Part shown: one piece after another, positions 17,136 to 64,000 of the stretch
How the letters are laid out: each line of letters starts with the position of its first letter
Numbering within the stretch: position 1 is the first letter of the stretch
Assembly (NCBI GenBank): GCA_012295275.1
Contig: CM022673.1
Span: forward strand, 23,870,001 to 23,934,000
Direction of reading: 5' to 3'
DNA: 64,000 nucleotides
Source: Chrysomallon squamiferum
Taxonomy: Eukaryota > Animalia > Mollusca
The notes under the pieces: model-generated
The model's input: only the letters and a program-made list of their open reading frames with translations
Told to the model about the DNA's origin: nothing
The model's database searches: none
Made by a program: the position numbers and the translations under genes

Positions 17136-17723
17136 TCAGTAGTCAAAGATTTCTTTATTGTCTCGCATGACTGGCGTCACGTGAATGATTGATCTGAAAT
17201 AAATCAATAATAATAATAATAATCATAATAATAACAACAATAACAGTAATAATTGTAATACAAAAATTGTAATATAGAAATCACAGAAAAAAAAAAAAGC
17301 AACATAAAAAAGTCAAATGTAATTTCATTATTATAAGCTTTTGGTTTAAGAAGAAATTATATATTATAAATATTTTTATATTTTTTTTTTATAGTTTTGA
17401 CAGTCGTTTGAAATATATTTTTTCTTATCTTGAAATGAAATACATGGACACAATTAAGTCATATTTTAAGTGGAAACCATTTCTGCCAGTAATTTAGATA
17501 AGTACCATGAGTTCTGATATACGACTCATGGAGCCCCAGGAAAGAATGGGAAAGCTTGAAGAAATGTTTCATTACCTTGGTGTTACTCTCACGTGATTGA
17601 TCTTTCTCTTCTTTGTGTAAATGAGAACACCAGCCACAGCTACAACAAGGACGCTGGCGACGATGCACGTGACGATGATGATTATTGTATTTTGACCTGA
17701 CGCTGCCTCCGCTGTGATAGGTT
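17136..17723 (-). CDS. Terminal exons of the giant gene: TM helix (17576-17723) and cytoplasmic tail (17136-17193)
   Basis: QPITAEAASGQNT-IIIIVTCIVASVLVVAVAGVLIY-TKKRKINHVRVTPR|SIIHVTPVMRDNKEIFDY*; hydrophobic span followed by a KKRK stop-transfer. Confidence 0.85.
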
Positions 17724-62700: not shown

Positions 62701-64000
62701 TCACACATCAGATAAACTCAGTGGCTCACAACAAACGCGTAGTGATGTTTCTTGTTCATTTTCATTTTTATTTATTTTTATACAGTTTATTTTCTTTATT
62801 TGAAATTTGAATTAATTGGAAATTGACCTGAAGAACAAAGGAGAAAAAGTATTCATTTTCGTCGCGTTTCTGCGAATAACCGAATGTTCCATCCATACCT
62901 GTTTCACAAATCGAGCCGACGTACGTATCGGTGCAGTGACATTCGCCAGTGTTGAAATCGCAAGACCCGAAATTTCGACAGCCATGATCTGAACAGTTTC
63001 CTGTTTCGTCGCCTGACACTGAAAGACAATAAAAATATGTTAAGTGATCGAAAGAACATCAGCGTCTGCAAATCCGAATAAGAATCTTCGGCAGAAGACG
63101 TGTCATTGATTTATCTGTGTCATCTGCAGTGGCAAATTGTCCTGTCCTCCGCGAATAATATCAGGAAGAAACAGAGTTTGGAAAATTTACACTAGCAATC
63201 ATGTTTGTGCATACCTGTTTCGTCATTGACAAACTCGAATTGGAAATCAAGTATAACACGAAAACTTCAACATAACCAATTTTAAACAAAATGTATAATA
63301 ACATAAGAAAACAAACAAGAAAAAGGTCATTGAAGGAACTTCAGCGTCTGCAAAGTCAAATACGAATCTTCAGCAAAAGACGGGCGATTGATTTTCGAAG
63401 GTATCTGCCTAATCCAGACTGCCTATTTACCTTGTCGATGTATTGAATGTTGGCAGCTGTTGGTGGGAATGGAGTACATTAATGTGAATAAACTGTAGAT
63501 TTTTATTTTTAACTGTTATTATCGGTATTTCACTTTTTTATTATAATTATTATTAATTTTTTTTTACCCTGCAAAACACTGATCAAGTAATGGTTCCTCA
63601 AAATTCTATCAAAAAAGAAATAAACCATCACAAATAAATATCGTATTCTATTATTAACATTATTGCTTTAATTATTAATTTTTGTTCAACTTTCTTACCT
63701 TTCGTCCAGTTTTACAGCTCATATTGTATTCCTATCGATTTAAAAAATCATTCAACACTTTGTTGAATAAGGTTCCAGAATCAGTTTCATAAAATACATC
63801 ACAAATCTATAGGTTAATAATGACATCTAACAATATTCTTACCTGTGTAATTACTGTAGAAAGCCTTGAAACTTAAATACCATCTGTAATAAGCTTCTGA
63901 CAGAGCAAGACCTGCGTTTTGATTGGCTAGTAAAGAACAAGCAGAAGATACAAAATACGTGTTGGCCAGGTTTTCATCTTCAAATCTCTCGTTCACATCG
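17136..64000 (-). CDS. Giant type I membrane protein, polycystin-1/REJ-related (EGF arrays, Cys-rich repeats, IPT-like, REJ-like, GAIN/GPS, single TM); 5' end lies beyond the window
   Basis: About 86 exons joined by hand with compatible GT-AG phases from 63843-64000 down to the stop at 17136-17138; >5,600 aa in the window if six frameshifting indels are errors or those exons are skipped. Confidence 0.8.
18400..20355 (-). CDS. GAIN-region exons (20223-20355, 19510-20056, 19157-19293) and GPS exon (18400-18612)
   Basis: VKDLAEPIVIEMP...VCHYFDITTQTWSTSGV...VVCRTTHLTSFSVF matches the GPS consensus C-x-F/W-D...W...C-x-x-x-H-L-T-x-F; helical upstream segment containing RRRRS. Confidence 0.85.
19330..19456. 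repeat. (CT)n followed by (AAT)n, intronic
   Basis: Seen directly. Confidence 0.95.
20532..26548 (-). CDS. PKD/REJ-like region exons: 26387-26548, 26024-26266, 25320-25506, 24906-25051, 24335-24451, 23863-23990, 23505-23681, 22961-23081, 22427-22528, 21946-22103, 20532-20705
   Basis: REJ-type motifs PVVTILGPRVISSCSDISL..GGVGKPMTYTWTV, PLYVYIKGGKERNVG..VTFDGSLSYDPD..LTYDWSC, LQTDSQYEFTLRISRG, GILEPEMTYMF; phases consistent. Confidence 0.85.
20710..21835. repeat. ~42-45-bp minisatellite (tacattgtcttctttagtcagtaattatacaatacttgtaatta), roughly 25 or more copies, filling an intron
   Basis: Seen directly; starts a few bases from the 20705 splice acceptor. Confidence 0.95.
22645..22905. repeat. 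~38-40-bp degenerate minisatellite (tatatagaaagtgttta...gtagaaaatg), intronic
   Basis: Seen directly, ~6-7 copies. Confidence 0.8.
26750..28941 (-). CDS. IPT/TIG-like exons: 28839-28941, 28420-28558, 27957-28031, 27339-27458, 26750-26956
   Basis: ISQVKPDIIPSATAKTVVVMGAGLSAGSRCTID and ISGGSEIVSIYG..TECIV..AYCEV..IKVALTLNGG resemble IPT/TIG strands; phases consistent. Confidence 0.65.
29164..30966 (-). CDS. Cys/Gly-rich repeat exons: 30838-30966, 30351-30533, 29591-29749, 29164-29296
   Basis: DCNGDCGG, ICGVCYGG, DACGEC, DCHGDCDG, DCEGVCNG, DACGFC, DCNGIC, NECGQC, DDCGVCGGDNSACLDCTG. Confidence 0.85.
31239..32959 (-). CDS. Four unique EGF-like exons (32840-32959, 32280-32400, 31955-32080, 31239-31361), all phase 1-1
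   Basis: PCDSSPCQNGGLC..FVCQCTLGWESADC and similar; the 32280-32400 exon is 121 nt (+1). Confidence 0.9.
33273..40503 (-). repeat. Tandem array of 23 near-identical 120-nt EGF exons (ATVNETDLCPAGKCGEFGTCIQDTGVCECTNNYTGIFCQN) at ~240-460-bp spacing
   Basis: Counted by eye; AAG acceptors, GTGAG/GTATG/GTAAG donors, phase 1-1; copies at 33571-33691 (+1) and 36782-36908 (+7) are frameshifted. Confidence 0.92.
41625..41720 (-). pseudogene. Truncated remnant of a 17th large-repeat exon (3' end and donor only)
   Basis: Encodes INNHHGRRQLFERFRQRIEE followed by GTAAGT; joined directly to intron sequence, with most of the unit deleted and no matching acceptor. Confidence 0.85.
41868..63018 (-). repeat. 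Tandem array of 16 x ~1.35-kb coding units, each a 120-nt EGF exon plus a 468-nt exon for an unrecognised 156-aa domain
   Basis: Large exons: 41868-42335, 43224-43691, 44570-45037, 45923-46390, 47270-47737, 48623-49090, 49970-50440, 51318-51785, 52664-53133, 54010-54477, 55364-55831, 56718-57187, 58073-58540, 59423-59892, 60777-61244, 62106-62573. EGF exons run from 42664-42783 to 62899-63018. All CAG|..|GT, phase 1-1. Confidence 0.95.
63843..64000 (-). CDS. Upstream unique exon of the giant gene (partial, runs off the window)
   Basis: Open frame DVNERFEDENLANTYFVSSACSLLANQNAGLALSEAYYRWYLSFKAFYSNYT-G|GTAAG; phase 1 is compatible with the EGF exon at 63018. Confidence 0.65.

Follow-up and report, generated by a model that had tools for sequence, protein, structure and literature searches.

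An exon chain for a channel-less REJ protein with homogenised exon arrays in Chrysomallon squamiferum

The window analysed here is a stretch of 64,000 nucleotides (nt) from the mollusc Chrysomallon squamiferum (assembly GCA_012295275.1, contig CM022673.1, positions 23,870,001 to 23,934,000), and all positions below are those of the window. The DNA is AT-rich and holds, on its minus strand, a gene model of 85 exons with introns between them. The whole model covers 16,874 nt, or about 5,624 codons, and ends in a stop at 17136. The exons of two tandem arrays, A and B, were found by motif, and 30 further exons were picked by hand from AG/GT candidates. All of these 30 were bounded by AG and GT, the last one ending at the stop, and the phases chained through to 17136. 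Array copies and non-array exons are real coding exons. The evidence supported a REJ protein that bears a GPS, crosses the membrane once and has no channel part, and whose exon arrays are homogenised.

Frameshifts were present in six of the 85 exons: three of the 16 large exons of array A (59892, 57187 and 53133), two of the 23 exons of array B (36908 and 33691) and one single EGF exon (32400–32280). Without these six, the open frame was 5,030 amino acids (aa) long. The five frameshifts in array exons, and one in-frame case of 3 nt, were insertions confined to single copies, mostly repeats of neighbouring letters. This suggested that they may be read errors rather than signs of decay.

The Pfam scan was made with 32 single-exon peptides; exons were scanned one at a time, and REJ was not scored at full length. 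Pfam REJ was found on three of the seven exons of the REJ domain (20223–23990), with scores of 27.7, 25.4 and 12.7 bits (cut-off 25, two above), collinear with profile positions 91–327. The next region (18400–20056), presumed to be a GAIN domain, ended in the GPS motif. Exon 18612–18400 scored 34.1 bits against Pfam GPS (E 4e-8), and its H-L/T was intact at 18427–18419. The order of a REJ-like part followed by a GPS had been proposed in an earlier reading of the letters alone (the sequence-only reading), and was borne out here.

The GPS part alone resembled chains of adhesion G-protein-coupled receptors (GPCRs), with E 0.002 to ADGRG3. Only one cysteine pair was kept in it, compared with ADGRG3 and ADGRG6, as is the case in polycystin-1. 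The single-sequence model of the 181-aa presumed GAIN exon had a predicted local distance difference test score (pLDDT) of 41, too poor for a fold search. The pattern R-x-[RK]-R had a single match in the 5,030-aa model, RRRR/S at 19982–19971, which we take to be a furin-type site; the GPS lies about 265 aa further downstream.

Exon 17723–17576 encoded a single transmembrane (TM) helix, a basic stop-transfer stretch and the start of the tail. This was the one strong hydrophobic helix in the model (Kyte-Doolittle hydropathy 3.0). The predicted last coding exon (17193–17136) was in phase and contained the stop, giving a tail of 32 aa with two V-T-P repeats. Beyond the stop, AATAAA occurred at 17091 and 16777. 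The single helix and the tail of about 30 residues in the sequence-only reading were recovered, the last exon as a prediction.

RNA was aligned to 15000–18900; the junctions upstream of 19157, including that between arrays A and B, lie outside this range. Contig X1/7 (2,536 nt), from RNA run X1, contained 18615–18400 followed directly by 17723–17576, and its loose end was 19160–19189. The two modelled junctions, from exon 19293–19157 to 18612–18400 and on to 17723–17576, are therefore real. If the model is right, the other 2,172 nt of the contig would extend 45 nt into exon 26266–26024. Run X1 held 0.21 of the sampled words of 17000–26600. Within the TM exon, run X1 differed from the window at four sites, which comprise two silent changes and one two-base change from Thr to Ile.

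The sequence-only reading had the frame end without PLAT or channel exons downstream. None of the 47 minus-strand frames of at least 30 aa in 17575–12200, down to the neighbouring gene PTGR3, matched a PLAT or channel family; three weak, unrelated matches were below cut-off. The next minus-strand gene, 5.4 kilobases (kb) on, was PTGR3/ZADH2 (E 1e-9 to human ZADH2 chains), and no PLAT or channel frame preceded it. No seven-TM (7TM) region followed the GPS in the model or in the downstream frames. The conclusion that the receptor is channel-less is well supported, the final junction to 17193–17136 being predicted. As judged from its REJ and GPS sequences, the protein is a member of the PKD1/REJ family and is neither an 11-TM polycystin nor an adhesion GPCR.

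The PKD1/REJ family is defined by the REJ domain (PMC1934368). SpREJ1, 8 and 9 of the sea urchin have REJ, GPS and one TM, and SpREJ10 is without the TM; SpREJ8 and 9 are 3,274 and 2,965 aa long, and SpREJ1 provides the precedent of a heavily glycosylated, ligand-binding protein with one TM (PMC1934368). A coral REJ protein is reported to carry PLAT (PMC4890752).

The present gene resembled SpREJ1, 8 and 9 in having REJ, GPS, one predicted TM, a large ectodomain and no channel part; SpREJ1 also has one EGF. It differed in its 27 EGFs (23 of them in a homogenised array), its Cys-rich and IPT-like segments and a possible upstream helical array, and orthology is not implied. Unlike SpREJ1, 8 and 9, this gene gave no C-type lectin or PKD-repeat match. 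With polycystin-1, PKDREJ and SpREJ3–6 it shared REJ then GPS upstream of TM1. On the other hand, it had no PLAT, no TM2–11 and only the 32-aa tail. The sequence-only reading had not recognised the architecture. That did not stand, as the channel-less REJ design is already known; the helical domain of array A is the new part.

Five Cys-rich exons with CxxC/CGxC repeats (28839–30966) were recognised by reading the sequence, and gave no Pfam match when scanned singly. Nine further exons (24335–28558), in frame, were IPT-like by eye and then formed a segment preceding REJ. The IPT-like exons, whose domains are split over short exons, had no Pfam match singly and no relevant PDB match. Both segments named in the sequence-only reading were in frame, with the cysteine repeats visible; the domain labels are by eye and found no counterpart in Pfam. 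For the segment 24335–28558, the Atlas offered no more than a lead, at 0.85, to a cluster in which REJ made up 10%. RecA matches of exon 26956–26750 were dismissed, since tandem fusion constructs would account for them.

Array B (33273–40503) consisted of 23 EGF exons, each 120 nt long and of phase 1-1; two of them were frameshifted, as described above. Four single EGF exons followed (31239–32959), so that array A is succeeded by 27 EGFs in all. Each of the five EGF exons tested exceeded the Pfam EGF family cut-off. The array B exons averaged 93% alike and the introns 73%, and the ratio of non-synonymous to synonymous differences (pN/pS) was 0.25. From these values we concluded that array B is under coding constraint. 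The acceptors of array B were AT-rich, with a poor pyrimidine tract, yet were preserved in 23 of 23 copies while the introns diverged.

Array A (41868–63018) was recognised by motif search and copy comparison as 16 units of about 1.35 kb. Each unit had an EGF exon of 120 nt and a large exon of 468 nt, which encodes a 155-aa domain with four cysteines, predicted to be helical. The large exons were 97.7% alike, the EGF exons 98.7% and the introns 96%. Two sub-types were distinguished, and copies 8 and 15 were mosaic. The two homogenised arrays of the sequence-only reading, 16 pairs of EGF and unknown domain and then 27 EGFs, were found as it had them. Among the intact array EGFs of both arrays, C2-x4-S/T-C3, presumably an O-fucosylation consensus, was present in 37 of 37, together with 57 N-glycan sequons.

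At its downstream side, array A broke off abruptly in a partial 17th unit (41623–41718), which holds the end of a large exon and its donor (96 nt, 92–99% to the 16 copies). At the upstream edge of the window, the 3' end of a further exon (63843–64000, phase-1 donor at 63843) belonged to a second type of the helical-domain family. It was 65% identical over 52 aa to the C-terminus of P0004, a relative with two helical domains. P0004 ends like this exon, and the upstream part of the gene therefore continues beyond 64000. Two short AG/GT-bounded open segments (63731–63699 and 63605–63568, minus strand) had phases that do not chain with the neighbouring exons.

A phmmer search of 1.84 billion representatives found seven relatives of the array A domain, at 27–43% identity; the members read were all from ENA except one from JGI/IMG. 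Three cysteines were invariant across nine aligned sequences. The large exon had no meaningful Pfam match, and neither had any of the five relatives scanned. Three relatives were sets of near-identical proteins: 15 (among the matches listed, of 16) at 96.5%, 8 at 97.4% and 14 at 96.5%. Of these proteins, nine from the first set and five from the second shared with P0007 a longest contig of 372,843 nt; we take this to be one ENA contig, which carries the relatives P0002, P0004 and P0007. The copy sets were 96–97% alike internally and 27–42% identical to the domain in this window. This points to repeated concerted evolution as the probable source of the pattern, and read errors may add variants.

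The AlphaFold model of the array A domain was all-helical (pLDDT 87, predicted template modelling score 0.78). Foldseek with this model found nothing at E <= 0.001 (best E 2.5), and a PDB sequence profile search found nothing below E 0.3. The best match in VIA-align was a utrophin spectrin repeat (Z 6.0, root-mean-square deviation 4.7, 99 residues aligned), tied with many helical bundles. The fold searches show neither a new fold nor spectrin kinship.

Other searches gave little. All Atlas matches were under 0.9. A word-based search of proteins of up to 2,000 aa with the pre-REJ frame, the array A domain and one Cys-rich exon found no full-length relatives, which is weak evidence given the length limit. 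Scans of metagenome contigs gave 324 and 51 pattern matches and no confirmed locus. A literature search, with subscription journals largely outside its reach, found no description of the array A domain or of the whole architecture.

Between arrays A and B lay a gap of 1,364 nt, in which a candidate first coding exon (41362–41266) was recognised by hydropathy, shuffles and a step in GC content. Its frame began at GCC-ATG (41362) and ran like a signal peptide, through an uncharged hydrophobic core and a small-residue cleavage site, to a phase-1 donor (41266) in frame with array B. Among signal-like ATG frames on both strands of the whole window, filtered by Kozak context, GC content and donor, it was one of two at a core of 2.3 and the sole one at 3.0. 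Shuffles of the gap reproduced such an exon in 1–24 of 2000.

The GC content fell from 0.35 to 0.14 at the donor. The observed/expected (o/e) CpG ratio was 1.04 in the A exons, peaked near 41.0–41.25 kb, dropped to 0.06 in the B exons, stood at 0.30 over the 12 exons that follow and had risen again to 0.77 over the final 18. In PTGR3 it fell similarly, from 0.97 upstream to 0.26 in the body. We interpreted the step between the arrays, by analogy, as a possible mark of transcription start, because promoters are reported to be hypomethylated and gene bodies methylated in two annelids (PMC11292947).

With a signal-peptide-like ATG exon in phase with array B, and with the sharp CpG step, the receptor likely starts at 41362 (about 2,500 aa). 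We consider it probable that the candidate exon is the real start, of a protein of about 2,518 aa. Since the same exon and step separate the arrays, one protein exceeding 5,600 aa became doubtful. The one phase-consistent gene of the sequence-only reading held as a chain of codons, and weakened as a single product on this account and on that of the six frameshifts; these, the signal exon, the CpG step and the furin-type site had been missed in it. Array A may be a separate upstream gene or an optional N-terminal extension. Just downstream of the candidate signal exon, at 40970–41020 on the minus strand, a CpG peak (o/e about 2) carried CCGGAA motifs, which we take to be ETS-type sites.

By a slight preference over all its alternatives together, we read the product as a REJ-GPS surface protein with one helix, starting at 41362 and cut at the furin-type site and the GPS: a tethered, sheddable, multivalent adhesin or coat. 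An internal promoter would produce a type-I glycoprotein composed of signal peptide, 27 EGFs, Cys-rich and IPT-like parts, REJ, GAIN and TM. The GAIN region would cleave itself at HL/T and stay non-covalently bound to the TM stub. Cleavage at this site is suggested because it is known for SpREJ3 and polycystin-1, whose halves stay together (PMC1934368). Furin cleavage at RRRR/S could free the whole REJ-EGF ectodomain.

The EGF array would form a long glycosylated rod of near-identical units, binding by avidity, with the Cys-rich and IPT-like parts as a neck below. Because the tail has only 32 aa, the protein alone would neither conduct ions nor couple to G proteins, and signalling would require a partner. 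Array A would belong to an upstream gene, or else to an optional long isoform, in which the tip of the protein would gain at least 16 helical-domain copies.

Several points weigh against this interpretation. The donor of the signal exon was weak (2.9 bits), and just three of the 32 modelled donors were lower. The criteria for the signal exon were fixed after it had been seen, and the real exon failed the stricter donor cut of a first shuffle test; the count of 1–24 in 2000 came from a looser cut. A 10-mer at 41301, inside the exon, was found elsewhere only at the starts of the 23 B exons, and 41301–41266 may be a decayed internal exon of the B type. Upstream of 41362, neither a clear terminal exon of array A nor an AATAAA was seen. 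The RNA support came from one contig, in one of three RNA runs, of one study; runs X3 and X4 held next to none of the stretch and nothing on these exons. Contig X1/7 also stopped exactly at the donor of the TM exon, and exon 17193–17136 was without RNA cover, which proves nothing.

Some of these points would fit one giant gene only, of more than 5,600 aa, in which the signal-like frame is a chance occurrence. Array A would then splice to array B directly or through a linker exon of 36 nt (41301–41266), made by the in-frame AG at 41301. This acceptor scored 4.8 bits and carries the 10-mer of the B-exon junctions. The array junctions are all phase 1, the 5,030-aa frame stays open once the six broken exons are skipped, the gap is short, and array A is without a clear 3' end of its own. 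On the other hand, shuffling seldom yields such an ATG exon, and the CpG step lies exactly at it and continues through the non-repeated exons. We consider the giant gene unlikely, though well within reach. The AG at 41301 with its B-exon 10-mer also means that array A could splice in right behind the signal peptide, and the chance that any mRNA connects array A with the remaining exons was judged a little short of even.

The sequence-only reading had also raised gamete recognition, which stays an analogy, with some support from the separately homogenised copy sets in other assemblies. The analogy is with VERL of abalone, in which about 22 repeats, each of some 150 aa, stand in tandem and the internal ones have been homogenised within species (PMC3567151). 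The homogenisation within sets and divergence between them was VERL-like: 97.7% in array A and 96–97% in the three other sets, against 27–42% between those and the window. The two appear to differ in their units, however. VERL is built of ZP-N repeats, which have a beta-sandwich fold, and the array A domain is predicted to be all-helical; it also alternates with EGFs and is encoded exon by exon, and any ligand is hypothetical.

In its stronger form, this analogy would give the protein a species-specific receptor role in gamete recognition or allorecognition, comparable to that of VERL or SpREJ1, in which the helical repeat does the binding. The array A sub-types differed, in the large exon, at 15.5 non-synonymous and 2.5 synonymous sites, as would suit such a role. 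This excess was not significant (P 0.19–0.39), however, and positive selection was unsupported. The introns of array A are homogenised as well, so that unequal crossing-over alone explains the pattern. The CpG loss over the 5' half would suggest steady, broad transcription and not a gamete-only gene, and most SpREJs are expressed in many tissues (PMC1934368). We regard such a receptor as unlikely, on a par with the giant gene.

Less likely still is a role as co-receptor in cilia or mechanosensation, in which the protein would supply the GAIN ectodomain for a channel or 7TM protein separate from it. The two V-x-P repeats of the tail presumably resemble ciliary targeting motifs; such motifs are short and common, however, the 32-aa tail is too small for a coiled coil or PLAT, and the furin-type site points rather to shedding. 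In favour of such a role, force unfolds REJ domains step by step (as cited in PMC1934368), and a one-TM isoform of Cirl is reported to pair with the 7TM form in mechanosensing (PMC13197933). EGF-rich adhesion GPCRs and the one-TM Cirl share with the present protein EGF repeats, a GPS with HL/T and possible furin shedding. They differ in that a REJ is present here and no 7TM, and that the one-TM form appears to be the sole C-terminus of the gene.

It is improbable that array A is irrelevant to the receptor, being either decayed or, in copy number and frameshifts, a product of the assembly. The three frameshifted large exons and the partial unit would be expected from this, as would the private changes in 15 units (16 indel events and 19 substitutions) and the lack of a purifying signal in the large exon. 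On the other hand, all 13 intact large exons were free of in-frame stops, and the shared sub-type substitutions (72 columns) are not read noise. The relatives keep their cysteines and also form multi-copy sets, and the insertions in the six array exons examined, each in a single copy, resembled read errors rather than decay.

A full polycystin, with the TM exon spliced onward to PLAT and channel exons, is very improbable: contig X1/7 breaks off at the TM-exon donor, as would be expected of a fork, and RNA is missing from the last exon, yet the 5.4 kb before PTGR3 hold no such frame, a last exon with a stop follows in phase, with AATAAA behind it, and the channel exons would need to lie beyond or around PTGR3.

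In the neighbouring DNA, the multi-exon PTGR3/ZADH2 gene (5750–12240, minus strand) had a CpG-depleted body. A tandem duplication of 1,922 nt (about 2909–6724, 97.5% identity) repeated its last two exons and 3' region, and is either real or a second haplotype assembled in line. Short high-depth elements at 15560–15660 and 16504–16536 (run X2 and RNA runs), upstream of PTGR3, are likely dispersed repeats. Minisatellites with a period of 40–47 nt, intronic and intergenic, were found at 20711–21855, 7528–7948, 13957–14215 and 22640–22873.

Beyond the surface protein starting at 41362, a locus with two promoters may be imagined, a rather long shot. It would make a short, broadly expressed EGF-REJ-GAIN receptor and also a long isoform, exceeding 5,600 aa and tipped with at least 16 disulfide-bonded helical domains of a kind not yet described. 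Re-homogenised separately in each species, these would serve as a species-specific, VERL-like unit for gamete or self/non-self binding, mounted on a polycystin chassis and released at the furin-type site and the GPS.

The cassette of REJ, GPS and one TM is known and almost unstudied outside SpREJ1, and the present gene adds an expressed one that carries a long array of EGF exons. A more valuable lead is the domain of array A: it is small, confidently modelled and in no Pfam family, and several assemblies contain sets of near-identical copies. Should array A prove a separate gene, what remains would be a commonplace orphan REJ receptor, and attention would shift to the upstream gene. Few invertebrate recognition receptors are known, and the 155-aa repeat could be expressed alone, which would make species-specific binding directly testable.

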